Origin: a plasmid
DNA length: 37,697 nt
Sequence record: NZ_CP016506.1
Direction: 5' to 3' (one strand)
Shown here: positions 7,131 through 37,697 of the stretch, piece after piece
How positions within the stretch are numbered: position 1 is the stretch's first letter
Layout: each line of letters begins with the position of its first letter
The notes under the pieces: model-generated
Seen by the model: only the letters and a program-made list of their open reading frames with translations
What the model was told of the DNA's origin: nothing
Database searches by the model: none
Made by a program: the position numbers and the translations under genes

Positions 7131-8158
7131 TCCTTCAGTTTTCTGAAATAGTCATCAAAATGAAGTTGTTTGTAGTAAATACCGGAAGCGAAACGAAAAT
7201 CTTCATCATCAAGGTATTTAATACTCATGATAATATCAATATTACTCAGTACACGTCTTAAAATGACATTGAATGGTAGATTCTGACATTCAGGATTCAT
7301 ATAACATCGCTGGACAATCCCAAGCACAGCATATTCAGGACTACTTTCGTGAACGGTGGTAATGTTTCCTGCATGGCCTGAACTCGATGCTTTCAGAAAA
7401 TCCCATGCCTCAGCCCCCCTGATTTCTGTCATCAGAATCCTGTCCGGATTCATACGAAAACAGGAACGCAGAAGACTCGCTGAGGTAATAACCTTACTCT
7501 CACCCTCTGCCGGATAGTAAAGTTTTACATGGTTTTTATGGAATCTGAATTTTGCCTCATCAGTATCTTCAATAGAAATACACCGCAGATGATGCGGTAT
7601 ATATTCCAGACAGGCATTTGCAAAGGTAGTTTTACCTGAACCCGTCCCACCACAGAAAACTATCGTTTTCCCCTGACGCAGTGATTCAGGTATAACCCGA
7701 TCAAAATATCCGGAAGTGATTAAAGCAGAAATATTATCTTCCATAACCGAGTCACCACTTAAACCACTGACGCGTGAATAAAATCCCTGTTTTATAAATT
7801 TGTCATGACTGATAAAAATACCTGACGGCTTACGGATTGTTATAGAAACAGTATCTTTTTCAGTTGCCGGTGGGATCACAACCTGAACACGTTCTCCACC
7901 CGGAAGCGTGGCAGAACGCAGGGGATATTCAGGAGTCACAGAACCGCCGTCATGAAAATCGGCCAGTGTGGATGCAAAAGAAAGACAATCACTGTAACTC
8001 ATCTTTTGTTCATACCATTGCCATTTTCCCCTGACCTTTATAAATATTTCTCCTGGTCGGTTAACAGCAATTTCCGTGACACCCTCAATCTCATTCAGCC
8101 AGTGATAAAAATAATCGTTGACCACATCATAAATCAGATGTCTGTTTTCGTTATTCAC
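7127..8158 (-). CDS. pilX11: VirB11-family traffic ATPase
   Basis: Walker A GGTGSGKTT and the conserved His box. Confidence 0.9.
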   Translation of the reverse strand: MNNENRHLIYDVVNDYFYHWLNEIEGVTEIAVNRPGEIFIKVRGKWQWYEQKMSYSDCLSFASTLADFHDGGSVTPEYPLRSATLPGGERVQVVIPPATEKDTVSITIRKPSGIFISHDKFIKQGFYSRVSGLSGDSVMEDNISALITSGYFDRVIPESLRQGKTIVFCGGTGSGKTTFANACLEYIPHHLRCISIEDTDEAKFRFHKNHVKLYYPAEGESKVITSASLLRSCFRMNPDRILMTEIRGAEAWDFLKASSSGHAGNITTVHESSPEYAVLGIVQRCYMNPECQNLPFNVILRRVLSNIDIIMSIKYLDDEDFRFASGIYYKQLHFDDYFRKLKE

Positions 8159-8159
8159 A

Positions 8160-9365
8160 TTAACCCCCTTTCATTTTCAGTTTATAAATGCCTGAAAAAT
8201 CCAGATCCTGACCGACAATCAGAGTAATAATTTCGCCCTGATTTTTATAAAGCGTTGGCGGAATATTCACACTATTAGAAAATGCTTCGCGTGCTATATC
8301 AGCAAAAGCCTGGCGACTGTTTGCCGTATAGTCGGTCTGGCTGTCCCTGTTGTTCTGTGCAATACCACTGGCGGCCTGACTTAAATCCGGTATCATCCCG
8401 ACCATCATTGCACCAAGAAAACGTTCACTGAAATGAGTGTCAATCCAACCAGAAACACCGGCTTCGCCTAACGCGCCAGCCGCCTGTGAGTCAACCAGGG
8501 GAATATCAATAAAAGGCTTACTGCGAGTACGTAGCTTGTAAGCCATAACAAACACACGCCCTTGTCCATGATTTAAAGACCCGGCCTTATACATCAGTTT
8601 TGCGGCGGTTCCTCTTTCGATAAGTTTTACATTACCGCTGGCGCTGTATATATCGCTGTTGACCGTACATTCCAGTTTCCCCGCCAGGTCAGAAACAAAA
8701 CGCCTGTCCAGTGAACAGGGAATTGATGTCCCTTCCGGGATAAACAAATTTGGGTCATATGGAAGTTTCGTTATTTTCGCCAGTGGCGCAGATTCTGTAG
8801 CCTGTGCGGTTGCTTTTGCTTCATCCTTTTTATCGCTTTCTGGCTCACTGGCCGCAGTATGTAAAACTGACGTTCCCGCTGAACTGCTGCTGTTTCCTGC
8901 CTGGCTGCCATCAAGAGAAACATCAAGTGCACGGCTGAAGCTCTGCTGTTTATTTTCCGGCGGTTCAGTCTTTTCAGAAGAAATGACTTTTTCTTCCTCT
9001 GGTTTCTCTGTTTTTTTCTGTGCGGTATTAAAAGGATCGATATCTTCGCTCAGTCCGGTCTGACGTTTAGCCGCTCCGGTTGCAAGCGGCTGACTTGCGG
9101 GTTTCTCATCCCCTGACGACACAGAACGGATAATGGACGGGATATAATAAACAGAAACACCGGCAGCAAGCAGAAGAAAACCCACGACGAGGATAATCAT
9201 CCCTTTACGTGACTTTTTAAGTTTTTCAATACCAAGCTGCAATGCTGGCTTGCCAGGCTCTTCTTCCGGAGTCTTCCCGGCCTGTTCCAGTTCTTTCTGT
9301 CTGCGTTCCCGTAGCTGCTGTTCAATTTCGGTTGCAGTCGGGATTTTATTTTCCTGTTCAGTCAC
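8160..9365 (-). CDS. pilX10: VirB10-family T4SS protein
   Basis: N-terminal TM segment, a Pro/Glu-rich linker, and a C-terminal beta-barrel domain. Confidence 0.88.
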   Translation of the reverse strand: MTEQENKIPTATEIEQQLRERRQKELEQAGKTPEEEPGKPALQLGIEKLKKSRKGMIILVVGFLLLAAGVSVYYIPSIIRSVSSGDEKPASQPLATGAAKRQTGLSEDIDPFNTAQKKTEKPEEEKVISSEKTEPPENKQQSFSRALDVSLDGSQAGNSSSSAGTSVLHTAASEPESDKKDEAKATAQATESAPLAKITKLPYDPNLFIPEGTSIPCSLDRRFVSDLAGKLECTVNSDIYSASGNVKLIERGTAAKLMYKAGSLNHGQGRVFVMAYKLRTRSKPFIDIPLVDSQAAGALGEAGVSGWIDTHFSERFLGAMMVGMIPDLSQAASGIAQNNRDSQTDYTANSRQAFADIAREAFSNSVNIPPTLYKNQGEIITLIVGQDLDFSGIYKLKMKGG

Positions 9366-10291
9366 TGGATCACCTCTTTCTTAACATCCGGGGATACCGT
9401 ATCTCCGGCTGGTAAACGTACTTTTCCGAAGCCCAGGTTCTCAATCCCCACCACCTGCTCACCAAGACGTAAAACAAAACGCTTATCAACCGGTACGCCA
9501 ACAGCCGTAAAACTCCCGCTCTGTTTAATCACAGGATTGGTAAGAGTCTCCTGCATACCGTTCATCACAAAGACGCTGGGAATTTTCTTTAACGGACTGA
9601 AGCCGAACCAGGTATAACGACCATCGTCATATGCATAATCAGGGCTGATATCCTGGCTGCCTTCAGCAACCCGCTTCCAGTACTGCCAGTTACGGGGCGA
9701 TTTCGCATTTTCCAGGGAACGGTTGATTGCCTGTTCCTCCAGGCGTCTGGCAAGAGCCTCTGTGCGTTTCTTCTCAATTTCGGCCTGTTCCTTCCGGCGT
9801 TCCTGCGGATACTGGTAATTCACCACAAACGCAATTTTCTCCGGCTGTCGGAACGTTCTGGCGTTCAGCTCCATGCTGTAATTACGTTTCGTGGTGCGAA
9901 CAAACAGATTCGTTCGCCAGCGTTCAAGCTCATTTTCCGGGTCAAGAGCAACACTGACGGATTCAGAAGAGGTGTTACCGTTTGCATCCGTATTATTTTT
10001 CTGAACAGTTTGTTTAACAGGACGAACTTCCAGGTATACCAGGTTATCTTCTTTATTAACCGCCCATCCCTGCGGAAAACCGGTTCTGGCACTGATAACT
10101 GTTTCATCTTCATCAAATACCAGTGTGGTGGTGTATCCAACGGCACTGTTAATTATGGTGGTATTATTGGGGTTATAACTGACTATCTGATTGCGTGGGT
10201 CAAAGCGACTGCCTGAAGGAAGAACAGCAGCATTACAGACGTGCGCCGCCATCAGAAGCGCCATAATTAACGCTCCTTTATTCATTTTCAT
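9362..10291 (-). CDS. pilX9: VirB9-family T4SS protein
   Basis: Signal peptide with VirB9/CagX-like domains. Sits between the VirB8 and VirB10 genes. Confidence 0.85.
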   Translation of the reverse strand: MKMNKGALIMALLMAAHVCNAAVLPSGSRFDPRNQIVSYNPNNTTIINSAVGYTTTLVFDEDETVISARTGFPQGWAVNKEDNLVYLEVRPVKQTVQKNNTDANGNTSSESVSVALDPENELERWRTNLFVRTTKRNYSMELNARTFRQPEKIAFVVNYQYPQERRKEQAEIEKKRTEALARRLEEQAINRSLENAKSPRNWQYWKRVAEGSQDISPDYAYDDGRYTWFGFSPLKKIPSVFVMNGMQETLTNPVIKQSGSFTAVGVPVDKRFVLRLGEQVVGIENLGFGKVRLPAGDTVSPDVKKEVIQ

Positions 10292-10295
10292 ATTA

Positions 10296-11009
10296 TTAAC
10301 CTCTGGCTTCTTTATCGCGAACGTAGCTTGTTACAACGAACTTAAGAGGATTGTTATTACGTTCCCCTGACACCATTTCAACCTGCGGTTCGATACGATA
10401 AGTCAGGCGAACATTCCAGAACTCCTGGCGGGTTTGTCCGGTAGCAACATCCCTGATGGTCAGACGAAAACGAATATACGCACCGATATCTTTATCATCC
10501 GTCCGTGACGAAGGTGAAATTATGACAGATGGATTATCCTGAACCATTGCCGTTTTTTCTGCTTTGTTATAAACAAGTTTTGGTGCCTGTTCACTGTTAA
10601 ATAATGCGTTATAATCTGCCGCGACATTCTCCGCGCTGTAAGCCATTACATAATCATAATCATGCTGGAGACTGAAAAAATTATAACCTTCACGATGTTT
10701 TATATACTGGGTGATAAAATATCGGGCAATGGCTTCGTTTTCAGAAAGATTTTCTTTTTTAACAGAAGTCAGACGTTCAGCCACACCTGTAACCTTATCG
10801 ATAAGGTAGGCATCAACAACTGTTGTTTTCAGTGGTAATGCTGCATTTAATGCAAGTAAAGACAGCCCACCAATTAACATGCCTCCGATACCACCGAATT
10901 TATAAATACGATTCATTCTCTCCTGTAGTGCAATGTTTTTTTCTTCAAACGAAACTGATGAGTCAGTAACGTCTTTTTTATTTTTAAATCCGGGAAGTTT
11001 AAATTCCAT
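10296..11009 (-). CDS. pilX8: VirB8-family T4SS protein
   Basis: Bitopic, with a single TM segment and an NTF2-like periplasmic domain. Confidence 0.85.
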   Translation of the reverse strand: MEFKLPGFKNKKDVTDSSVSFEEKNIALQERMNRIYKFGGIGGMLIGGLSLLALNAALPLKTTVVDAYLIDKVTGVAERLTSVKKENLSENEAIARYFITQYIKHREGYNFFSLQHDYDYVMAYSAENVAADYNALFNSEQAPKLVYNKAEKTAMVQDNPSVIISPSSRTDDKDIGAYIRFRLTIRDVATGQTRQEFWNVRLTYRIEPQVEMVSGERNNNPLKFVVTSYVRDKEARG

Positions 11010-27889: not shown

Positions 27890-28140
27890 TCAGAATTCCT
27901 CTCTTTATGACGTAAAGATTATGTAAAGACTGTCTTATCTTTACATTGTGTGTTGTTCGTAAAGATTATTTTGTCTTTACAGTGTCTTTATATTACAAAT
28001 GATTTACCATGTAAAGCACAAATAAAGATAAGCTTGTATTTATGTTATCTTTATTGTGTAAAGATTTGTGTGTATTTATAGTGGCTTTACGTGGTAAAGC
28101 TGAGACTGTCTTTACATCATCTTTATGTTGTAAATTTCTG
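27890..28140. repeat. parC: centromere/operator region: about 10 heptad repeats GTAAAGA / TCTTTAC in both orientations between divergent parA and resolvase
   Basis: Visible reiteration of cgtaaagat, tgtaaagac, tctttacat and similar heptads. Confidence 0.65.
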
Positions 28141-28268
28141 TGTGACATTGTCACTTTATGGTCGGAGGTCTGTTTTCTGGTTCTTTTTGAGTGTGCCTTT
28201 CCTGTCGATCTACTTTCTGGTGCATTTTGGGTATAGTGGTGTAACCTTATGTGAACCGGTTCTGTAAT

Positions 28269-28913
28269 ATGACTTCAAATGTACCAACAAGCTTTGTCCG
28301 CGCTTATCTGAGAGCTTCAACAGCAGAACAGGATGCTTCGCGTGCCCTGGAAACTATCGAGGCTTTTGCCAGGGAAAGAGGCCTGATCATTTGCAGCTAC
28401 TATATTGAGAATGAATCCGGCACCCGTCTTGAGCGCCCGGAACTTTTTCGTCTTCTGAGAGATTGCCAACAAAATGACATTTTGCTTATCGAGGATGTGG
28501 ACAGACTTTCCCGCCTGTCAGGGGAAGACTGGAATACGTTGAAGAAAATGATCCGGCAGAAAGACATCCGGGTTATGGCGGTGAATGTGCCGACGACATG
28601 GATTAATTCTGGTATGAGTGAGTTTGACAGCCGGTTGTTTGCAGCCATTAACGATATGCTGCTGGATATGCTGGCCGCAGTTGCCAGAAGGGACTATGAA
28701 CAACGTCGGGAACGCCAGAAACAAGGGATAGAGAAAGCAAAGAAAGACGGCAAATATAAAGGGCGTAAACCTAATCAAGCCAGACATGATGCAATTATCA
28801 GGTTGATAGAAAGCGGTAGCTCCTGGACACAGGTACAGAAAGTGCTAGGGTGCAGCCGTGGCACAATCAGTAATGCGCTAAAACGTAAAACCGGGCAGAA
28901 ATCCAGTAAGTAG
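28269..28913 (+). CDS. serine recombinase (resolvase/invertase family), multimer resolution
   Basis: N-terminal catalytic motif YLRASTAEQ and a C-terminal HTH (GSSWTQVQKVLGCSRGTI). Confidence 0.85.
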   Translation: MTSNVPTSFVRAYLRASTAEQDASRALETIEAFARERGLIICSYYIENESGTRLERPELFRLLRDCQQNDILLIEDVDRLSRLSGEDWNTLKKMIRQKDIRVMAVNVPTTWINSGMSEFDSRLFAAINDMLLDMLAAVARRDYEQRRERQKQGIEKAKKDGKYKGRKPNQARHDAIIRLIESGSSWTQVQKVLGCSRGTISNALKRKTGQKSSK

Positions 28914-29023
28914 AGGAGTAGGGGGCTAATATACCTGCAAGGCAGGATATTAACTCAGGAGATTGGGGGTGTGGTGTTTAGTCAATGCATTTGAATATTG
29001 TAACTAAAATATGTTTTTATTAA

Positions 29024-29050
29024 AGGCCGGAGGTGGTTAGCCCCCGGCCT
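29024..29050. other. GC-rich stem-loop (aggccggaggtggttagcccccggcct) at 3' end of toxin gene; conserved in second toxin locus
   Basis: Inverted repeat with no U-tract. Followed in both loci by the conserved tagttacgtttccgc. Confidence 0.5.
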
Positions 29051-29067
29051 TAGTTACGTTTCCGCCA

Positions 29068-29151
29068 TCAGCCCATCAACTGGAGAAGGTAGCGAATCAG
29101 TTCAAGAAGTGAGATTAGTGCCCCCAGAACGATGATTGCTTTATCAATCAT
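29068..29151 (-). CDS. dinQ: DinQ-like type I toxin peptide (27 aa, MIDKAIIVLGALISLLELIRYLLQLMG), not in ORF track
   Basis: 22 of 27 residues match E. coli DinQ. GGAG RBS 7 nt upstream. A single TM helix. Confidence 0.7.
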   Translation of the reverse strand: MIDKAIIVLGALISLLELIRYLLQLMG

Positions 29152-29253
29152 CCGTTTACTCCATTATATGGAGCAGACTCCCGATACTTACTCTTACACT
29201 GCCTGTCATATCGGTTGTTCTTCGGTGTTGGTTGAAGACAGTTCCACTCCAGC

Positions 29254-29374
29254 CAGAGCCACCAACTCAGGGCTGGAAAACACAAAAAAGCCCGATTACC
29301 CGTCGGGTTTTTTTGTGCCTGTCGTTTGGCTGTACTTCCGTTTTTTCCCCTTCATTTGAGGGATTTTTCTTTCA
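29254..29374 (+). ncRNA. 120-bp repeat A: candidate agrB-like antitoxin sRNA gene (hairpin ccagcc..ggctgg then bidirectional terminator aaaaaagcccgattacccgtcgggttttttt)
   Basis: 96% identical to 34924-35043. Contains a tgcctgtcg stretch resembling tgcctgtca in the toxin leader. Confidence 0.4.
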
Positions 29375-29835
29375 TTTTTTGTTGCAGCCAATACCGCTGA
29401 TCGCGTTGGCCAACAGAACGATGCCGTTACCGGCATTATCATGAATCCCATTTTTTCAGTAAGTTGCAGCATACAAAGTAATTAAAAAAACGTCATTTTT
29501 TGTTGATGGATGCAGTAGCGGTGGTGTGCTACGTGAAATCTGGGAAATGCTGGCGGGTAAGTGACTCAATTTTTTAATCTCCGCACCTGTTTTTTTGGAC
29601 GTGCCAGCAATTATGACCTGAAGCAGAGGTGCGTCCGACAACAAAAATTCCGATCACCAGAAAAAATTTTGGACATTTTTTCCGATAATGCATTTTTGTC
29701 CAGGGGGATATGAACTACAGGGCAGGGCGAAAAGGAAGCGGTTATCTTGAATATCCATAGGATATGGGCTCATATGCCGGAATAGGGCACCAGATAAAGG
29801 AAATGAATTCAGTGTATGTTGTAACTAATAGGATC

Positions 29836-29859
29836 TGGACAGAATCACCTGAACGTCCA
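29836..29859. promoter_or_regulatory. operator-like palindrome TGGACA-N12-cGTCCA (copy 1)
   Basis: One of four near-identical sites, found only in the island. Confidence 0.45.
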
Positions 29860-29961
29860 GTCGGGCGCTAATCTATAATAAATGACCGTAGAAGGGCCAT
29901 TTCTACGGCAAAGTTCTGGAGATGATAAAATAAGAGCCTTAAACAATAAAAGGATTTGCTT

Positions 29962-30069
29962 ATGACACTGGACCAACTGCTTGAAATCCACGACCGCGCT
30001 GGGCTGAGCACCTATGAACAGGAAACAATTATATCTTTCATTAACCAGCGGCGAGGTGACTTGGTGTAA
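29962..30069 (+). CDS. hypothetical 35-aa protein, not in ORF track
   Basis: AAGGA RBS. 6 nt upstream of the next ORF. Confidence 0.3.
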   Translation: MTLDQLLEIHDRAGLSTYEQETIISFINQRRGDLV

Positions 30070-30074
30070 AAGCG

Positions 30075-30362
30075 TTGCCGGAAATTATGCCTCCAGTATC
30101 TTGCGGCTGGATCTCCAGAAGAATAAAACAGCGTTCTCAGGAGCAGGCAGACGAAAATAGCTGGAATTATTATAAACAGAAGATTCAGGAATGGATAACG
30201 CTAATCGAATTGCATGAGGCATCACTTACCAGGGGGGAAAAGCTAACGCACTTTGTGGGAAAGCATAAATGGTGGTTAGGAGGCACTTGCGCAGTTATCG
30301 CATCAATTACAAGCACTGTGATAGCTAGCTGGATTCTTTCGTTATGGACTTGGGCTAACTGA
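30075..30362 (+). CDS. hypothetical C-terminally membrane-anchored protein (95 aa)
   Basis: C-terminal hydrophobic helix (GGTCAVIASITSTVIASWILSLW). Confidence 0.45.
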   Translation: MPEIMPPVSCGWISRRIKQRSQEQADENSWNYYKQKIQEWITLIELHEASLTRGEKLTHFVGKHKWWLGGTCAVIASITSTVIASWILSLWTWAN

Positions 30363-30677
30363 CGTGACAGAAGCTGCGTTACGTCCAAGTTGATAAAAAG
30401 TTGTTATCCACAGAGAACAGGGCGGTCATCCGGCGGGTTCAATAATATGGTATTATTACAGCACCTTAAAAAATAAGGATTGCGGACGGATGATATATTG
30501 ATAAAGGATACTCATGCGTGTAAAACGCAAAATACCCTGAGTAATCAGGGTATTAAACGCGGAAAAGTAAAGGTTGAGCGCTTTACATTTTCCATTCACA
30601 CCAGAGGCGTGACTAAATCTAAAATTGATTCTACGGCAACGTTCAATCTACGTCAAATCGCCAATGGTTTTCCTGTT

Positions 30678-30809
30678 ATGAAAATTACCGGAGGCTTCAT
30701 GTTGTTAACCATCATCGACACCTATCTTCATGCTTCATTACTGACACAGATACTGGTAATCCCGTTTATCTGTGCGGTGGTGTGGGCGGTAAAGAAAATC
30801 CGGGTATAA
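30678..30809 (+). CDS. small hydrophobic peptide (43 aa; or 36 aa from ATG 30699 after GGAGG)
   Basis: A single TM helix with a KKIRV tail. A strong terminator lies downstream. The ORF track's 109-aa version lacks an RBS. Confidence 0.4.
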   Translation: MKITGGFMLLTIIDTYLHASLLTQILVIPFICAVVWAVKKIRV

Positions 30810-30813
30810 CTTA

Positions 30814-30860
30814 AACATGGCTGGCTGAGAGGCCAGCCATGTTCAGTGAGTTTTGTTTCG
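30814..30860 (+). terminator. Rho-independent terminator (aacatggctggc..gccagccatgtt + T-rich)
   Basis: 12-bp perfect stem followed by gttttgttt. Confidence 0.7.
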
Positions 30861-30862
30861 AA

Positions 30863-30886
30863 TGGACAGAATTACCTGAGTGTCCA
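30863..30886. promoter_or_regulatory. operator-like palindrome TGGACA-N12-TGTCCA (copy 2)
   Basis: Upstream of the 116-aa gene. Confidence 0.45.
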
Positions 30887-30959
30887 ACCCATTGCGGCGC
30901 AGGGATAAAGCTGTAAACTTTTACTGATGAACAAAGTAGCCCGTTGGGCATAAGACAAC

Positions 30960-31310
30960 ATGGAGCAAACCTTGGCTAAGGTAACCAGAATTCAGGCCGG
31001 AAGATACGCAGTCGATGATGGGCGTTGCATTATAAAAAATAACTCTGGGTGGCTTATTGTCGATGCTAATGGCGCTCATGATTTTGGACCTGTCCCCACA
31101 TTAGCAGCAGCTAAGGAATATGTTGAGTCTGGTACTGTTCCGCTAAGGCAGCACAATTTTTCTACATCTCATGGTCGAAGACAAAGTAAAAAAGAATTTA
31201 ATGCGTATTTGGCATCTGAAGCTAAAAATGGCAATCCAATGCCAGCCATTCTTTGGATAATTGTCCTTTGCATCATCTGCGGCATTGTAGTTGCAGTTCG
31301 AGGTTATTAA
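30960..31310 (+). CDS. hypothetical C-terminally membrane-anchored protein (116 aa)
   Basis: Soluble N-terminal domain and a C-terminal TM helix (ILWIIVLCIICGIVVAV). Confidence 0.5.
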   Translation: MEQTLAKVTRIQAGRYAVDDGRCIIKNNSGWLIVDANGAHDFGPVPTLAAAKEYVESGTVPLRQHNFSTSHGRRQSKKEFNAYLASEAKNGNPMPAILWIIVLCIICGIVVAVRGY

Positions 31311-31313
31311 TCT

Positions 31314-31337
31314 TGGACAGAAAATGCTGTATGTCCA
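31314..31337. promoter_or_regulatory. operator-like palindrome TGGACA-N12-TGTCCA (copy 3)
   Basis: Upstream of the 169-aa gene and the OLD gene. Confidence 0.45.
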
Positions 31338-31393
31338 GTCAGCCGGAGAATTATACTAGCGACCATGATCATCACAGGAAGAACGCGTAACAG

Positions 31394-31903
31394 ATGGCAA
31401 CTGAGTGGGTAGATGTGGCTGATAATGCCGTTAAAATTGGGCTGGGTGCATTAATCACCATTGTTGGTGGCTGGATTACACTGAAATTAACACACTGCCA
31501 CGAAATAAGAAAAGATGCAATAGCTCAGCGACTGCGGGATATAGATAAAAAAACTGACCGCTATATAGATTTTCTTTCTTCATCGCAAACGCTAATGCAG
31601 AAATATCTTTATGAATCATGTGATCCAGGTAGCGAGGACTACACCAATTATATGCGGTTGCATAATATTGTAAGCCTGACATCCTCCCCTGAATTGCGAA
31701 TCTATGCTTTTGATACTCAGTCCAAAGTATCGCAATTTATCCTGCTCAGAAAGCCCAACGAACCAGAGGTTATTGATTCCTGTCGCAATGCCGCGAGAAA
31801 CGCCGTTTCTGTGCTTCAGGGGGCAGTGAGTGCTGAATTGCTTCAGGATAAAGCAGCACTTCAGGACAAACAACATGCATGGTGGGCTTTCTGGCGAAAA
31901 TAA
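31394..31903 (+). CDS. hypothetical N-terminally membrane-anchored protein (169 aa)
   Basis: AGGAAG RBS. N-terminal TM helix. Confidence 0.55.
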   Translation: MATEWVDVADNAVKIGLGALITIVGGWITLKLTHCHEIRKDAIAQRLRDIDKKTDRYIDFLSSSQTLMQKYLYESCDPGSEDYTNYMRLHNIVSLTSSPELRIYAFDTQSKVSQFILLRKPNEPEVIDSCRNAARNAVSVLQGAVSAELLQDKAALQDKQHAWWAFWRK

Positions 31904-32008
31904 AGCAGAACAGTGGAGGAAGAGCCATTTATCCAAGTAGCGAAAGACAGTTAAAGCCTTGGGAAAAAATGTCGATAATCCGAGCAATATTCTATCGTAG
32001 GAAGAAAA

Positions 32009-33910
32009 ATGGAAATAGTATCATTTAAAGTTTCTCAGTATAGGTCTATTTCAGGGGAGATATCCTCTGATAACTTTAATGGATTAACCATTGTTGGGCA
32101 AAACAACAGTGGTAAAACAAACCTATTAAAAGCTATGAGGGTTTTTTTTGAAGGAAAATTTAATCCTGACTTATATGACTATGAAAAAGATAAGCCACAT
32201 GGTGTTAAGCAAGGACAAACTAGTTTTGCTGTAAGATTTACTTTTTCTGAAAGTGAGCTAGATGATGTCTCTGAGGATTTGAGCCAAGACGATGATGATG
32301 ACGATGATGACTCGATTATTGAACTTGGTGTTTTAGGGGAGCAAGAAGAACCTAGTAATTCTATTTCATTTGATGATGGCAGCTCTAAACAACAAGAATC
32401 AAAACCAACTCAATCAAGAGGCAGAAAGCTAAGTTTGAGAGATAGATATTTGCAGCTGTTTAACATGATTGATGACTCCAGGTTAAATTCACCTCAAAAC
32501 GAAGTGACCGTACATCTGACAATATCTAATAAAAACAATTACTTTTACACTGTCTTTAAAGGTTACAAGAGGAAACCTGAAGTAACTTCCTCCATGTATA
32601 CATCTGTTGAAAGAAGGTTCATAGAAAAAATACTTTCTAGTTTTGAGTGTGTGTATATACCATCGTCAAAAAGTATTGATGATATATATCATAATCTATT
32701 AGTTCCATATGTTAGGAGTGAAGTAGCTTCAGCCATGAAAACATCGGTTCAAGTGATTCATGATAAACTGTTGGAAGTGTCTGAAAAGATAACAAATGAA
32801 ATGATTCTAAGCGGTATAGATGACTGTAGCTTTATGATTAAAGCTCCGCCATCTCTTGATGAGTTATTTGGTCGCTTTGAGGTTTCAATAAAAGATACTA
32901 TTGAGAATGTGATATCGAGTAAAGGTATGGGGCTACAATGCTTATCTTTATTTTCTTCATTTAAATCTATTTCAGAGAGAAAACTTACTCTAGGTAAGAA
33001 AACGATTTGGATGGTTGAGGAGCCTGAGTCTTTCTTGCATCCCTCATTAGGCCGGTCATGTAATCACATTTTCAAATCACTGATGGATGTTGCTTATGTT
33101 CTTATTACAACTCATTCCTTATCATTTGTCAGTGATGAGCCAAGTAAGATCATTGAGTTATATAAAGATGACGCCGGTGTTACAAAAGATAAAAAGCATG
33201 AAAAAAGATTTAATGCAGTTGCAAGCATAAGAGAAAATCTTGGGGTCAGATTTTCTGATTTCTTTAACATATCAAGTAGTGCAGTTTTCGTTGAAGGTAT
33301 CACCGACAAACAATATATAGAATCAATATTGAAATTGACATCTGAACATGATGAGTTTAAGAACAGATGGCCTTTTCTGAGGAGTGCTAAAGTTGATGAG
33401 TTTGGTGGAGTCAGTCAACTTGGGGGATTCTTGAAAGGGTGCTACGAGTTTATTTCTAAAGATGTCCCCGTAATATCTGTTTTTGACGGTGATGAAGCTG
33501 GGGTCAAAGAAAGAACCAGATTACAAAGCTACTTTGGTAAAAAACAAATTAGATTTGAGTCAAATAAAGACTATATTTCTGTAAGAAGTGGTTTTGCTAT
33601 TGAAGGCCTCTTCCCTGACGATTTCATTTCTGACGCAATGGAAACCCATCCGTCGTGGTTTATCGGAGGAAAATCTGTTGATGCCGATGATGTAATTGAA
33701 CCATTCAAAGTGCAAGATAATAAAAAAACTAACTTATTAAATTTCTTCCTGGAAAAATGTCGTGTTCAACCTATATGCGGTTGGATTTCTCGGTGGGAAA
33801 AGGTGTTTAACGTCATAGACTCAGCCTTGCGAGATAAAAGTGAATCCATCACAAACAAAAAACGAACCGAAGATACTTCCGGTAACACTTCAGCTCATCA
33901 AGCTGCATAA
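32009..33910 (+). CDS. OLD-family ATP-dependent nuclease (ABC-type ATPase + C-terminal Toprim)
   Basis: Walker A GQNNSGKTNLLKA. The OLD signature Walker B VEEPESFLHP. H-loop ITTHS. Toprim motifs VFVEGITD and FDGDEAG. AGGAAG RBS. Confidence 0.85.
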   Translation: MEIVSFKVSQYRSISGEISSDNFNGLTIVGQNNSGKTNLLKAMRVFFEGKFNPDLYDYEKDKPHGVKQGQTSFAVRFTFSESELDDVSEDLSQDDDDDDDDSIIELGVLGEQEEPSNSISFDDGSSKQQESKPTQSRGRKLSLRDRYLQLFNMIDDSRLNSPQNEVTVHLTISNKNNYFYTVFKGYKRKPEVTSSMYTSVERRFIEKILSSFECVYIPSSKSIDDIYHNLLVPYVRSEVASAMKTSVQVIHDKLLEVSEKITNEMILSGIDDCSFMIKAPPSLDELFGRFEVSIKDTIENVISSKGMGLQCLSLFSSFKSISERKLTLGKKTIWMVEEPESFLHPSLGRSCNHIFKSLMDVAYVLITTHSLSFVSDEPSKIIELYKDDAGVTKDKKHEKRFNAVASIRENLGVRFSDFFNISSSAVFVEGITDKQYIESILKLTSEHDEFKNRWPFLRSAKVDEFGGVSQLGGFLKGCYEFISKDVPVISVFDGDEAGVKERTRLQSYFGKKQIRFESNKDYISVRSGFAIEGLFPDDFISDAMETHPSWFIGGKSVDADDVIEPFKVQDNKKTNLLNFFLEKCRVQPICGWISRWEKVFNVIDSALRDKSESITNKKRTEDTSGNTSAHQAA

Positions 33911-33984
33911 TCGATTGTGTGCACCAAGGTTGCACATACACCTGATTAATCAAGAGTGAGACCATAACAAGCCTATATCAGATA

Positions 33985-34016
33985 ACAGCCCTCTTCATAA
34001 GAGGGCTGTCTTTTTC
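33985..34016 (+). terminator. Rho-independent terminator (acagccctcttcataagagggctgt + TTTTT)
   Basis: 10-bp stem and a T-run. Confidence 0.75.
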
Positions 34017-34239
34017 GCGGGCATCGTACTTGGAAAATGGAAAACATCCTACGCTAAGAGCGTTTTTTAAACAACCGGCTTGTTGGTTTTTACGAGATAC
34101 TGTGCAGTTGAAGGAACAAGATAAAGGAATTAAAGACCCTTTAGTACCATACTTTCATGAAATTTTCCCATATTTTCTTTTAGATCGTGCAACAGCGAAA
34201 AGACGTAGGAATTGGCTTGATTAGCCGCAATACTATTTC

Positions 34240-34262
34240 TGGACAGAATGAGTGTATGTCCA
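34240..34262. promoter_or_regulatory. operator-like palindrome TGGACA-N11-TGTCCA (copy 4)
   Basis: Downstream of the OLD gene and upstream of the toxin-2 locus. Confidence 0.45.
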
Positions 34263-34441
34263 AGTCGGGCGAGGAATTAAACGAGGGGCGTAAAAAAGGC
34301 CGCTTACGCGACCTCAGCCTTTTGCGGTTTTGGCTTGGTGATATACCACGATAGACAACCGACAAACATCGCAACAGGGAAAGGAAGAAGTAAACAGCGC
34401 CCCAAAATGCTCATAAAATCCATAAATCCTCCTTTGTTAAA

Positions 34442-34470
34442 GGGCAGGAAGCGGTTCACTTCCTGCCCTT
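34442..34470. other. GC-rich stem-loop (gggcaggaagcggttcacttcctgccc) at 3' end of second toxin gene
   Basis: Counterpart of 29024-29050, followed by the same tagttacgtttccgc. Confidence 0.5.
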
Positions 34471-34489
34471 AGTTACGTTTCCGCTGTCA

Positions 34490-34585
34490 TCAGTCGATGA
34501 ACTGGCGAATCAGTTCCAGAATTGCAATCAGCGCGTTTGCAACGGCGACCACAGCCCTGAGAACGATGATTAACAAATTAATCAT
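34490..34585 (-). CDS. DinQ-family-like type I toxin peptide 2 (31 aa, MINLLIIVLRAVVAVANALIAILELIRQFID), not in ORF track
   Basis: Same architecture as 29068-29151, with GGAG-aaacgg-ATG, a shared ELIR motif, and the same flanking sequences. Confidence 0.6.
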   Translation of the reverse strand: MINLLIIVLRAVVAVANALIAILELIRQFID

Positions 34586-34923
34586 CCGTTTCTCCAGTAA
34601 AACTGGAGGAAATCACCGTTGCTTACTCATACACTGCCTGTCACAACGGCTCTCTCGCATTGTTAGGTGTAGAGTGACCTCCTCCTGCCAGAGCACCGAA
34701 TACAGCACCACCTGTTTATCCAGCCAGGACTTTAAAATCGTTCATACCCGCAGATACGGGAAGGGCAGGATTGCAAGTCAACTACATGACTAACTGACTG
34801 ATTATACGCTACACAAAACACCCGTTACACCACTAAATGTGGTTCCTTAACCACATTTAGTTGCTTTACAGCACCATAGTGAATAAAATGTAAACGTTAG
34901 GTGTAGAGTAACCTTCTCCAGTC

Positions 34924-35043
34924 AGAGCCACCAACTCAGGGCTGGAAAACACAAAAAAGCCCGATTACCAGTCGGGTTTTTTTGTGCCTGTCGTTCGGCT
35001 GTACTTCCGTTTTTCCCCCTTCATTTGAGGGATTTTTCTTTCA
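34924..35043 (+). ncRNA. 120-bp repeat B: second copy of candidate agrB-like sRNA gene with bidirectional terminator
   Basis: 96% identical to 29254-29374. Confidence 0.4.
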
Positions 35044-35181
35044 GTTTTTTATCGGTGACTGTTTCATGGCTGGATTAATGTGGGGGTAAGGTATAGAGCA
35101 TTGCCTAACCTGCAAACTTTCAATACATTAGTAAGATTAGGATTTTTACTTACTCATCCAAACGAAAAAATGGAATGAAAA

Positions 35182-37697
35182 ATGATTGATTTCACAAATA
35201 AACTCAAGAAAAAAGAACTCCCAAAGAGAATCAACCCAGTTGAAATATATGAGTCATTAGATAGACGTAGCGAAGCTGGTCCATTACGGCCTTCCCAAAA
35301 AACCATTCTAGAACAATGGTTTAACAGTAGACGTAACGAAAGGGATAATATAATTAAACTACACACCGGGGAAGGTAAAACATTAATTGGGTTGCTAATT
35401 TTGCAGTCTAAAATCAATGAGACCAATAGCCCTTGTTTATATGTTTGTCCTAATATTTACTTGGCAAAGCAAGCTGTCAAAGATGCAGAGAAATTTGGCA
35501 TCCCTTATTGTATAATCGATCATAGTAAAATGATACCGGATGATTTCCTTTCAGGAAGAAAAATACTAATCACTCACGTCCAAAAATTATTCAATGGGAA
35601 AACTGCTTTTGGCTTGGGCAGTAAGTCAATTCATGTTAATTCAATTATTTTAGATGACTCACAAGCATGCATTGACTCAATTAAGAACAGCTTTACTATT
35701 AAAGTAGATAATGAAAGCGATCTTTACAAATCAATATTAAATATTTTTTCTGATGAACTACGTGAACAAGGTGAAGGTAGTTACTTAGAAATACAAAATG
35801 GAGTTGGAAATAATACATTACTTCCAATACCATATTGGTCATGGATTGATAAAAAAGAGTTGGTAGCGCAAGAATTACTTAAAAATATTGAAGATAAAAG
35901 AGTGTCTTTCATTTGGCCTTTGATAAAAAATGAAATACACAACTGCCAAGCATTTCTATCTGGTGAATATTTGGAGATTTCACCAATTTTTTCACTAATA
36001 GATTCCTTTGGTAGCTTCAGTAAGGCTAACCATCGTTTTCTAATGTCTGCAACTACACAAGATGATTCATTTTTTATCAAAGGATTAGGCTTTGACGTCG
36101 AAGCGATTAAAAAACCTTTGGTGAATCCTGATCTTGTTTGGTCAGGAGAAAAAATGATTCTAATACCATCATTAATTGATGAGACATTAGACCGTGAAAA
36201 GATCATAAACTGGTTGCTTCGTCCAAATGATAAACGAACATTTGGAACAGTATGTTTAGCACCTAGCTTTGCTAATATAAAACAATTCCAGCGAATTGGG
36301 GCTATTGTAGCAACTACAGAGACAATTTACGACTGCATTGAAAAGTTAAAAAGAGGTGAATTTTCCAATTCAATGGTCTTTGCAAACCGCTACGATGGCA
36401 TTGATTTACCTGATAATTCATGTCGTATTTTAATTATTGACTCTAAGCCATACTCTGAAACTTTAACAGATAGATATGAAGAGGAATGCAGGCCAAGCAG
36501 TGATATCATTAATGTAAAGACAGCCCAGCGTGTGGAACAAGGGTTAGGTCGGAGCGTGAGGGGCGAAAAAGATTATAGCGTAATTATAATCACCGGTGGT
36601 GATCTTGTTCAATTTTTAAAAAGCCCATTAACTACAAAATATTTCTCTCCTCAAACCAGAATGCAAATTGAAATAGGAGGTCAAATTGTAGGTTTTGCTA
36701 AAGATGAAATTGATGAAGGTGCAGAGGCTGATAAATTATTCGTCGGATTAATTAATAAATCTTTGCAACGTGATGAAGGTTGGAAAGAGTATTATGTTGA
36801 AAGCATGAATGAAATTGACATTAGAGATAGAAAAGATAATCTTTATGATCTAATTTCACTAGAATACAAAGCTGAAAAATTATTTATCAAAGGTGATTTA
36901 GACAAAGCATGTGATGTATTGCAAGATATTTGTGATAGATATATTGAGGATGAAATGGAGAAAGGATGGTATCTTCAACTTCAAGCGAGGTACAAATATA
37001 GTATAAGTAAAATTGAATCTAATAAAATTCAAAAATCAGCGTTCCAGCGAAACTGCAATCTACTCAAACCTAAAGATGGTGTTATATATAAAAAAATTGA
37101 CAACATCAATGCTACCAGGGCAAATAGAATAAATAAATGGGTTAGCGCACATACTGATTATCAATCTCTTATGATTTCCGTTGATAGCATCTTGCAAAAT
37201 ATTTCCTTTGGCATTCAATCTGATAAATTTGAAGATGCTTTGCATAACTTAGGTGTTTCTATTGGATTTGTTTGCCAACGACCTGATAAGGAAATCAAAA
37301 AAGGACCTGATAATCTATGGGGGGATGTAGATGGACAGTACTTCCTCTTTGAGTGCAAAAATGAAGTTGATGAAAACCGTTCTGAAATTAATAAAATAGA
37401 AGCAGGTCAGATGAATAACCACTGTGGCTGGTTCGCAGATGAATACGGTAATGCAAAGTGCAAAAAAATCATAATAATAAACACAAGAACACTTTCATAT
37501 CATGGAGATTTCAATGATGAAATATTTGTTATGCGGAAATCAAAGCTTAAACTATTAAAGGATAATGTAAGATCTTTTTTCAAAGAGTTCAAAAATTATG
37601 ACTTGCAATCATTGGATGAGACCATTATCCACAAGTTTATTAAGCCACATAATTTAGATATTGAAAGTCTAACTTCCATTTACACTGAATCAATAAT
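35182..37697 (+). CDS. SF2 helicase (motif I HTGEGKT, motif III SAT, DinG/Rad3-like motif VI QGLGRSVRGEKD) fused to C-terminal PD-(D/E)xK-type nuclease motif (D..VDG..FLFECK); 3' end beyond window
   Basis: An uninterrupted frame of at least 838 codons, translated by hand. Absent from the ORF track because there is no stop inside the window. Very AT-rich. Confidence 0.75.
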   Translation, partial: MIDFTNKLKKKELPKRINPVEIYESLDRRSEAGPLRPSQKTILEQWFNSRRNERDNIIKLHTGEGKTLIGLLILQSKINETNSPCLYVCPNIYLAKQAVKDAEKFGIPYCIIDHSKMIPDDFLSGRKILITHVQKLFNGKTAFGLGSKSIHVNSIILDDSQACIDSIKNSFTIKVDNESDLYKSILNIFSDELREQGEGSYLEIQNGVGNNTLLPIPYWSWIDKKELVAQELLKNIEDKRVSFIWPLIKNEIHNCQAFLSGEYLEISPIFSLIDSFGSFSKANHRFLMSATTQDDSFFIKGLGFDVEAIKKPLVNPDLVWSGEKMILIPSLIDETLDREKIINWLLRPNDKRTFGTVCLAPSFANIKQFQRIGAIVATTETIYDCIEKLKRGEFSNSMVFANRYDGIDLPDNSCRILIIDSKPYSETLTDRYEEECRPSSDIINVKTAQRVEQGLGRSVRGEKDYSVIIITGGDLVQFLKSPLTTKYFSPQTRMQIEIGGQIVGFAKDEIDEGAEADKLFVGLINKSLQRDEGWKEYYVESMNEIDIRDRKDNLYDLISLEYKAEKLFIKGDLDKACDVLQDICDRYIEDEMEKGWYLQLQARYKYSISKIESNKIQKSAFQRNCNLLKPKDGVIYKKIDNINATRANRINKWVSAHTDYQSLMISVDSILQNISFGIQSDKFEDALHNLGVSIGFVCQRPDKEIKKGPDNLWGDVDGQYFLFECKNEVDENRSEINKIEAGQMNNHCGWFADEYGNAKCKKIIIINTRTLSYHGDFNDEIFVMRKSKLKLLKDNVRSFFKEFKNYDLQSLDETIIHKFIKPHNLDIESLTSIYTESI

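Follow-up and report, generated by a model that had tools for sequence, protein, structure and literature searches.

The OLD family is a known kind of anti-phage protein, and its single-gene members, which form Class 1, are rare (reported in 0.45% of genomes) and the least understood of the OLD classes. Phenotypes are available only for P2 Old, Vc OLD and YbjD, and these single-gene defences differ in trigger and in substrate. P2 Old is triggered by inhibition of RecBCD and cuts the anticodon stems of tRNAs. Vc OLD of Vibrio cholerae is a DNA nickase whose abortive-infection-like defence requires residues of the Walker A, Walker B and DxD motifs and is faced by a phage counter-protein, Oad1 (Patel and Seed 2025). 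The Toprim domains of OLD type in Ts OLD, Vc OLD, GajA and Eco8 cut DNA, and those of P2 Old, Eco2 and PARIS AriB cut RNA or tRNA. Here we analyze the sequence NZ_CP016506.1 (37,697 nucleotides, nt; this whole stretch is called the window), an IncX1 plasmid that encodes a 633-residue protein (WP_000407092.1; Table 1) named in RefSeq simply "AAA family ATPase". We find that this protein belongs to the OLD family and that its gene is Class 1 by genomic context. It appears to represent a new, divergent Class 1 subfamily, part of which bears a clade-specific polyanionic disordered loop.

An OLD-family ATPase fused to a divergent Toprim domain

Pfam detects only the ATPase part of the protein (AAA_15, 5e-19; AAA_21, 4.8e-10). 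The isolated C-terminal domain (CTD) scores 14.2 bits with the Pfam model OLD-like_TOPRIM, under its threshold of 23.2 bits, which explains the bland RefSeq annotation. No NCBIfam model matches near its cut-off (the Eco8 model, whose cut-off is 250 bits, gives 28), and a single-sequence phmmer search of the PDB returned nothing useful, so that a family profile was required. With this profile, the PDB search recovered Ts OLD from Thermus scotoductus (6P74, 3.8e-18), GajA (2.4e-13) and the OLD protein of retron-Eco8 (1.4e-7), in alignments that run from the EEPE Walker B through the VEG strand of the Toprim domain. P2 Old is likewise recovered, both by hhalign (98.3% probability, E = 1.3e-14, in an alignment of 177 columns that begins at the signature motif and ends at the Toprim Glu) and by BLASTP (1e-8). 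The best PADLOC model is Old, which is matched partially at 66.6 bits (best stretch at model positions 230-409 of 578), followed by generic AriA/AAA_15-like models and GajA models (about 1e-14, in split alignments). Moreover, AlphaFold2 run on a family alignment of 99 sequences gave an OLD-like fold (mean predicted local distance difference test score, pLDDT, 86; predicted template modelling score 0.70), and the leading Foldseek matches in the PDB, all at about 1e-15, are Ts OLD (1.2e-15), GajA (1.5e-15) and Eco8 OLD (2e-15).

The same alignment of 99 sequences, drawn from several phyla, was used to read conservation. Invariant in it are G30, N32, G35, K36, Q310, E337, E338, P339, E340, H369, E429 and G430, and further D433, D493, D495, G498 and E532; this conservation of the OLD motif set is far beyond chance. 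The Walker B region aligns with IIEEPEMYLHP of Ts OLD and LIEEPEISLH of GajA, and the first Toprim strand aligns with LLVEGYGD of Ts OLD and LLVEGKTE of P2 Old. In Ts OLD, metal A is bound by E377/D431/D433 and metal B by D381/S478/E480 (PMC7049728). Mapped by the E-x3-D spacing, the corresponding sets would be E429/D493/D495 for metal A and D433/(A530)/E532 for metal B, where the metal-B Ser, two residues upstream of the Glu, is replaced by Ala. Every feature examined, namely the ATPase motifs, the Toprim ligands and the homology, places the protein in the OLD family. The first-pass annotation of the window, made from the letters alone, had read the open reading frame (ORF) at 32009-33910 as an OLD-family nuclease with the full motif set. 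All of these motifs are indeed found with their key residues invariant, the catalytic Toprim residues included, and the proposed kinship with OLD, P2 Old and GajA is recovered by the profile searches and by the predicted structure.

A long helical hairpin within the ATPase fold (residues 223-267) probably corresponds to the dimerisation domain that OLD proteins carry inserted in the ABC fold (PMC7049728). The CTD aligns over 158 residues with the C-terminal region of the class 2 Bp OLD and over 136 residues with Ts OLD. The insert-less family core of about 555 amino acids (aa) is class 1-like in length, yet two helices (570-632) trail the Toprim core. The class given by genomic context and the structural resemblance of the CTD thus do not match neatly.

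Relationships with characterised OLD systems

Ts OLD is the best match among solved structures by both profile and Foldseek. It shares with the plasmid protein an ABC ATPase with a helical insertion, a Toprim domain at the C-terminus, the Walker B sequence EEPExxLHP and the metal ligands E-x3-D, DxD and Glu, and it too is encoded by one gene that has no partner helicase. Nevertheless, the identity between the two is about 12-16% in structural alignments, and the acidic insert and the C-terminal helices, both present in the plasmid protein, are missing from Ts OLD.

P2 Old is also a single-gene OLD on a mobile element, where it excludes another phage. It lacks the acidic insert and is not orthologous: P2 Old matches the PADLOC Old model over its full length at 712 bits versus a partial 66.6 bits for the plasmid protein, which has no full-length high-scoring match that would place it in the P2 Old orthologue group. 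Vc OLD is likewise a bacterial Class 1 protein from a single gene on a mobile genetic element (MGE) (Patel and Seed 2025). Its K48, D313 (the Walker B Asp) and D468/D470 differ from K36, E337/E338 and D493/D495 of the plasmid protein, and the published residue numbers thus indicate a different subfamily. A homologue of the plasmid protein in a Vibrio cassette (P0058) was considered as the published Vc OLD and rejected, because its catalytic numbering and Walker B residue differ.

GajA, the Class 2 OLD protein of Gabija, shows full-length homology, the same domain order and the same motifs. However, it depends on the adjacent UvrD-like GajB, with which it forms a 4:4 complex, and no such gene lies beside the OLD gene or in 70 related loci; in the absence of a GajB-type two-gene operon the locus does not belong to Gabija. 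The E. coli protein YbjD/OldB (DUF2813) is also not a close relative (DUF2813 gives 19.9 bits against a cut-off of 21, and hhalign with YbjD a probability of 62%); YbjD itself matches the GajA model PDLC00094 at 267 bits.

IbfA of the IncI1 plasmids R64 and pUA1135 (PADLOC HEC-04) is likewise a single ATPase-Toprim protein of conjugative plasmids, and it confers abortive infection against phages, P22-like ones among them. It differs in its length of 518 aa, in lacking the acidic insert and in its PADLOC family. An hhalign comparison with R64 IbfA (sequence from NC_005014) covers just 46 columns around the P-loop, and HEC-04, with which IbfA scores 141 bits, is outside the top PADLOC matches of the OLD protein, which is accordingly not placed in that family.

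The Class 3 OLD protein of retron-Eco8 shares the fold (Foldseek 2e-15; profile 1.4e-7) and requires a reverse transcriptase and a non-coding RNA. Neither is seen near the OLD gene: Pfam found no reverse transcriptase in the two upstream genes or the downstream helicase, and Rfam (E ≤ 0.1) over positions 28000-37697 returned AgrB and no retron RNA or other family. Both domains lie on one polypeptide, unlike in Class 4 systems such as PARIS, and the CTD, when searched against Pfam at E ≤ 10, gave no match to DUF4435/AriB. Membership in PARIS and in the retrons was tested and rejected. Judged by sequence, the protein belongs to a divergent, new OLD subfamily that is orthologous to none of the characterised members compared.

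A single-gene locus and its downstream helicase

The first-pass annotation had regarded the gene as stand-alone, with no UvrD-type helicase adjacent to it. None is found next door, but a DinG-like helicase gene that begins 1.27 kb downstream and runs off the end of the window had been overlooked. This ORF of 843 aa lies on the same (+) strand, at 35182-37697 and continuing through 1-16, and encodes an SF2 helicase of the DinG/XPD type (ResIII plus Helicase_C_2) with a full-length match (E = 0) to the PADLOC family PDC-S28. Gabija joins an OLD protein to a helicase, and the two genes here are co-oriented on this plasmid and on its nearest relatives, so one might consider a Gabija-like two-gene system in which a helicase of this candidate defence family takes the place of the UvrD-type GajB. 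We consider this highly improbable. The genes are not adjacent, as the 1.27-kb spacer contains a strong terminator-like hairpin and a type I toxin-antitoxin (TA) module whose dqlB toxin gene faces the opposite way and whose antisense RNA is AgrB (Rfam, 62.8 bits). The helicase is found in 12 PLSDB plasmid records versus 148 for the OLD gene, and PDC-S28, which turned up in a single survey in the literature, is listed in PADLOC as a single-gene defence candidate. Moreover, the OLD gene occurs without an adjoining helicase on IncHI2 plasmids (between IS26 copies), on an IncX1 plasmid of 24 kb in E. coli ATCC 25922 and on 5.8-kb Klebsiella plasmids, and no helicase recurs next to the divergent orthologues or among 70 diverse loci.

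When the flanking ORFs of these 70 loci were compared all-against-all by BLASTP, no neighbour family recurred in more than 4 of them. Together with the terminator and the TA module in the spacer and the separability of the helicase, this upholds the stand-alone status. The OLD gene is therefore Class 1 by genomic context: a single gene, with no adjacent UvrD/PcrA/Rep-like helicase and with neither reverse transcriptase nor retron RNA seen in the searches above.

Two side observations concern neighbouring genes. One neighbour family alone occurs in more than three loci: in four of the 70 (at 7882-10773 of locus L055 and in three others), a gene convergent with the OLD homologue and immediately downstream of it codes for a protein of about 960-1100 aa. 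In the E. coli ATCC 25922 plasmid (NZ_CP009074.1, 9363-13852) the place of the helicase is taken by genes for an S66 peptidase, a GNAT acetyltransferase, an S-adenosylmethionine-dependent methyltransferase and an MFS transporter, a set which we take to resemble a microcin C-type cluster.

Distribution, mobility and selection

Among the 148 plasmid copies in PLSDB, 139 are at least 99% identical to the window gene, and the copies among the matches listed are intact. The copy in the E. coli plasmid NZ_CP031234.1 (22414-24317), which is 1904 nt long versus 1902 and annotated as two coding sequences, seems to be a frameshifted allele or else the product of a sequencing error. A search of 1.84 billion representatives of 50%-identity clusters yielded 61 proteins at E ≤ 1e-30 (many of them fragments) and 254 at E ≤ 1e-10, which marks a small subfamily. 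A typical member has a length of about 555 aa, and at 30-38% identity members occur in Gamma-, Beta- and Alphaproteobacteria, Actinomycetota, Bacteroidota, Cyanobacteria, Verrucomicrobiota and Campylobacterota.

A distinct allele is carried by 5.8-kb MOBP-mobilisable plasmids of Klebsiella pneumoniae (NZ_OW970448.1, 2819-5630), with 92.7% nucleotide identity. The cargo of these plasmids consists of the OLD gene and a RelE/ParE-NadS pair and nothing else, and the 20-nt overlap between the end of rep and the start of the OLD gene suggests that the two are co-transcribed. The protein cluster of this allele has 1358 member sequences. More distant orthologues that bear the acidic insert (43-71% identity) lie in classic cargo positions. 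In a lambdoid prophage of Edwardsiella piscicida (loci L097/L098, 4056-7531), a 71%-identical orthologue is located between the N-peptide gene and a cI-like repressor gene, convergent with cI, an interval that we take to be the rexAB position of phage lambda. In two further lambdoid prophages, a lone OLD gene on the opposite strand adjoins the RusA/DUF968/antiterminator (Q) block. The Prodigiosinella orthologue adjoins HicAB, that of Serratia is a one-gene islet flanked by two regulators, and an insert-less homologue in Vibrio forms a single cassette in an integron-like array. A tblastn search of 50,697 phage records gave just two weak matches, to Vibrio elements, and the link to prophages is based on contig contexts rather than on isolated phages.

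These contexts bear on whether the protein might serve its mobile element in some other way, by excluding or degrading competing plasmids, by post-segregational killing or stabilisation, or by RecF/SbcC-like DNA processing. The ATPase domain resembles the heads of RecF, Rad50 and SMC proteins, Toprim-plus-ABC systems such as Wadjet target plasmids (as reviewed), and one archaeal OLD has a housekeeping role. The gene also sits in the accessory/maintenance region of the plasmid, between resolvase/ParA genes and TA modules, and on the small Klebsiella plasmid it is the sole cargo besides a TA pair. We nevertheless regard such a role as unlikely, since homologues that occur as scattered single chromosomal genes in many phyla, at prophage moron sites and in integron-like cassettes fit defence cargo better than plasmid-specific maintenance. 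Partition and resolution are already supplied on the window by a ParA-type ATPase, a resolvase and Rep, and all bacterial and phage single-gene OLDs tested so far showed anti-phage phenotypes.

Selection was estimated by comparing the gene of the window with that of the small Klebsiella plasmid. The synonymous divergence (dS) is 0.33 and the nonsynonymous divergence (dN) 0.021, with an overall dN/dS of 0.063; the ratio is 0.024 in the ATPase part and 0.044 in the Toprim region. These low values indicate that selection maintains both catalytic domains. They also speak to the idea that the protein acts chiefly through its ATPase domain, with a catalytically irrelevant Toprim domain, or that the gene is a decaying passenger. 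In support of this idea, E. coli YbjD retains its anti-phage phenotype without its Toprim domain, the Toprim domain of the plasmid protein is too divergent for the Pfam model, and one plasmid copy appears frameshifted. We judge it improbable, as the five acidic Toprim ligands are all invariant in the family alignment, the CTD is under the constraint just given, nearly all plasmid copies are almost identical, and the relation to YbjD is weak.

A clade-specific acidic loop

The low-complexity acidic insert of about 60 residues that had been pointed out in the first-pass annotation is real. It was described as following the Walker A motif; it does lie downstream of that motif, though not directly, as it starts about 50 residues beyond. 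In this region the plasmid protein has 81 residues versus about 25 in insert-less homologues, which leaves about 56-60 extra residues. The insert is located in ATPase lobe I, between a strand (residues 71-78) and a helix (143-152) and outside the helical hairpin, and AlphaFold2 predicts it to be disordered (Table 1). Its acidic part (residues 85-125) has a net charge of -18 and the whole insert (85-142) of about -16.

The insert is restricted to a narrow clade of Enterobacterales and is missing from every homologue outside that clade; across the insert region, only about three 50%-identity clusters match. Among 16 orthologues, its sequence is poorly conserved with a steady net charge of -12 to -19, and in all 16 it terminates in a short basic patch. 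Its dN/dS between the window and Klebsiella small-plasmid copies is 0.35. The Asp run of the Klebsiella allele is longer by four residues (DNDDDDDDDDDD; one Asn and eleven Asp), and 16 of the 36 amino-acid differences between the two plasmid alleles fall within residues 51-150, in and around the insert. In net charge, the folded remainder of the loop-bearing proteins also exceeds that of their loop-less relatives by about nine units towards the basic side (-0.4 ± 2.0 versus -9.5 ± 5.0), the ATPase part alone having +3.1 versus -3.0. This more basic core fits a loop that acts as an intramolecular electrostatic partner.

Autoinhibition by acidic D/E tracts is known for nucleic-acid-binding proteins (PMC10250230, PMC5606850), and in retron-Eco8 the OLD protein is held inactive by a bound polyanion, the msdDNA, until an SSB (single-stranded DNA-binding protein) of a phage binds it. 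The latter is a possible analogy for the polyanionic loop, which, with low confidence, we propose to be a cis-acting nucleic-acid mimic and regulator. A more elaborate proposal is that the loop could be both a built-in mimic lying on the substrate-binding surface, as an autoinhibiting cis analogue of the Eco8 msdDNA, and a bait for a phage DNA- or RNA-binding protein. Capture of the loop, for instance by a phage SSB, recombinase or anti-restriction factor, would then release the nuclease. This dual role is quite unlikely; if true, it would make the protein a one-polypeptide sensor-effector, activated by a logic new to the Class 1 OLDs, few of whose triggers are known.

Proposed function

We favor, with a probability of about 0.68, the reading that the protein is a self-sufficient OLD ATPase-Toprim nuclease, Class 1 by context, whose role is most likely phage or MGE exclusion or abortive infection and whose loop is a regulatory add-on. 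By analogy with described systems, exclusion of phages or MGEs by abortive infection is the most likely role of the gene. A defence role is suggested because orthologues occupy cargo positions, because selection maintains both domains, and because P2 Old, Vc OLD, YbjD and IbfA provide precedents. It gains further support from the single-gene inserts in lambdoid prophages and in the integron-like cassette array.

The mechanism that we propose is as follows. An N-terminal ABC-type ATPase with a helical insertion, probably dimerising, is fused to a putative two-metal Toprim nuclease, and in Enterobacterales the subfamily travels as one-gene cargo, both on plasmids (IncX1, IncHI2 and the 5.8-kb mobilisable ones of Klebsiella) and, as a moron, in lambdoid prophages. 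The enzyme would protect the carrier element and its host from incoming phage and possibly from other invading DNA. An infection cue would switch its ATPase, and ATP binding or hydrolysis may license the Toprim site to cleave nucleic acid. The target could be either DNA, nicked or degraded as it is by Vc OLD, Ts OLD, GajA and Eco8 OLD, or tRNA/RNA as for P2 Old and the Eco2 Toprim. The polyanionic 58-residue loop in lobe I would be a clade-specific regulatory add-on, most plausibly an intramolecular nucleic-acid mimic that silences the enzyme until the trigger arrives.

Several points weigh against this proposal. Literature searches, by RefSeq accession and for OLD combined with IncX1, found no experimental work on the protein or its subfamily. 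Functional transfer is long-range only, as seen in the distance between its PADLOC Old score and that of P2 Old and in the sub-threshold Pfam score of its Toprim domain. The best structural matches to the CTD among Toprim domains are Eco2, an RNase, and Bp OLD, a DNase, with nearly equal Z, so DNA and tRNA/RNA cannot be told apart as substrates. The YbjD precedent cited above means that nuclease-based defence is not guaranteed, and the archaeal OLD protein Cran1 functions in the cell cycle and not in defence. As for the loop, the disordered AlphaFold2 model offers no docking information, and the charge compensation comes from a single clade and thus counts as one evolutionary observation.

The replicon and the surroundings of the gene

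The window is 99.9-100% identical to the Salmonella Heidelberg IncX1 plasmids pF18S033 and pB182_37. Its products include VirB3/4, a coupling protein, a relaxase, TopB, a Rep3 initiator, a resolvase and ParA, in keeping with the earlier proposal of a conjugative plasmid. Because the last ORF runs on into bases 1-16, the window represents an entire circular molecule, and it is a complete conjugative IncX1 plasmid.

Within the accessory region, a 5.4-kb block consisting of four small ORFs and the OLD gene is flanked by two DinQ-like/AgrB type I TA modules (29092-29380 and 34505-35049). Their AgrB matches in Rfam lie at 29228-29315 and 34897-34984, and the toxin ORFs of both are on the minus strand. 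Both modules contain a 134-nt direct repeat that is 96% identical (29247-29380 and 34916-35049), and these repeats could be a route for gain or loss of the block. Directly upstream of the OLD gene, on the same (+) strand, are small ORFs of 116 aa (30960-31310) and 169 aa (31394-31903), the former with a C-terminal and the latter with an N-terminal hydrophobic stretch. The 169-aa protein, wrongly labelled "peptidase M14" in some records, gave nothing significant with Pfam or PADLOC. This membrane protein was considered as a partner and rejected: it travels with the OLD gene only inside the same segment of at least 99% identity, and it is missing from the Klebsiella plasmid and from the divergent orthologues.

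Table 1. Features of the OLD gene and its protein in NZ_CP016506.1 (window coordinates; invariance refers to the 99-sequence alignment)
Feature	Residues	Coordinates	Strand	Remarks
OLD-family ABC-ATPase + Toprim coding sequence (WP_000407092.1)	633 aa	32009..33910	+	ORF, Pfam, profile, AlphaFold2, Foldseek
Walker A/P-loop GQNNSGKT	30-37	32096..32119	+	G30, N32, G35, K36 invariant
Clade-specific disordered insert	85-142	32261..32434	+	Acidic block then basic patch RGRK; pLDDT 33-66 over 91-140
Eight Asp codons (GAC/GAT)	94-101	32288..32311	+	Run of eight Asp
Long helical hairpin within ATPase fold (candidate dimerisation domain)	223-267	32675..32809	+	AlphaFold2 helices 223-242, 244-267
ABC signature-like SKGMGLQ	304-310	32918..32938	+	G306, G308, Q310 invariant
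Walker B + D-loop TIWMVEEPESFLHP	332-345	33002..33043	+	W334, E337, E338, P339, E340, P345 invariant
H-loop ITTHS	366-370	33104..33118	+	H369 invariant
Toprim strand 1 AVFVEGITD	putative catalytic E429, D433	33281..33307	+	Invariant; E-x3-D spacing as Ts OLD E377/D381
Toprim DxD VFDGDEAG	D493/D495	33479..33502	+	D493, D495, G498 invariant; corresponds to D431/D433 of Ts OLD (metal A)
Third acidic Toprim element GFAIEGLFP	E532	33590..33616	+	Invariant; would correspond to E480 of Ts OLD (metal B)
C-terminal helical pair past Toprim core	570-632	33716..33904	+	AlphaFold2 helices 570-586, 594-632; K573 near-invariant, W592 invariant
Intrinsic-terminator-like hairpin		33985..34009	+	11-bp stem, T tract; 75 nt past OLD stop codon

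Implications

These results add what appears to be a further OLD subfamily, widespread on clinically relevant plasmids of Enterobacterales (148 PLSDB records; IncX1, IncHI2 and small Klebsiella plasmids) and present in lambdoid prophages. With its bland RefSeq label, its sub-threshold Pfam OLD-Toprim score and its poor match to PADLOC Old, the subfamily is probably undercounted in surveys. The acidic loop may offer a handle on how a lone OLD protein stays silent. If the gene restricts phages, it would be relevant to phage therapy and to the success of its plasmids in phage-rich guts.

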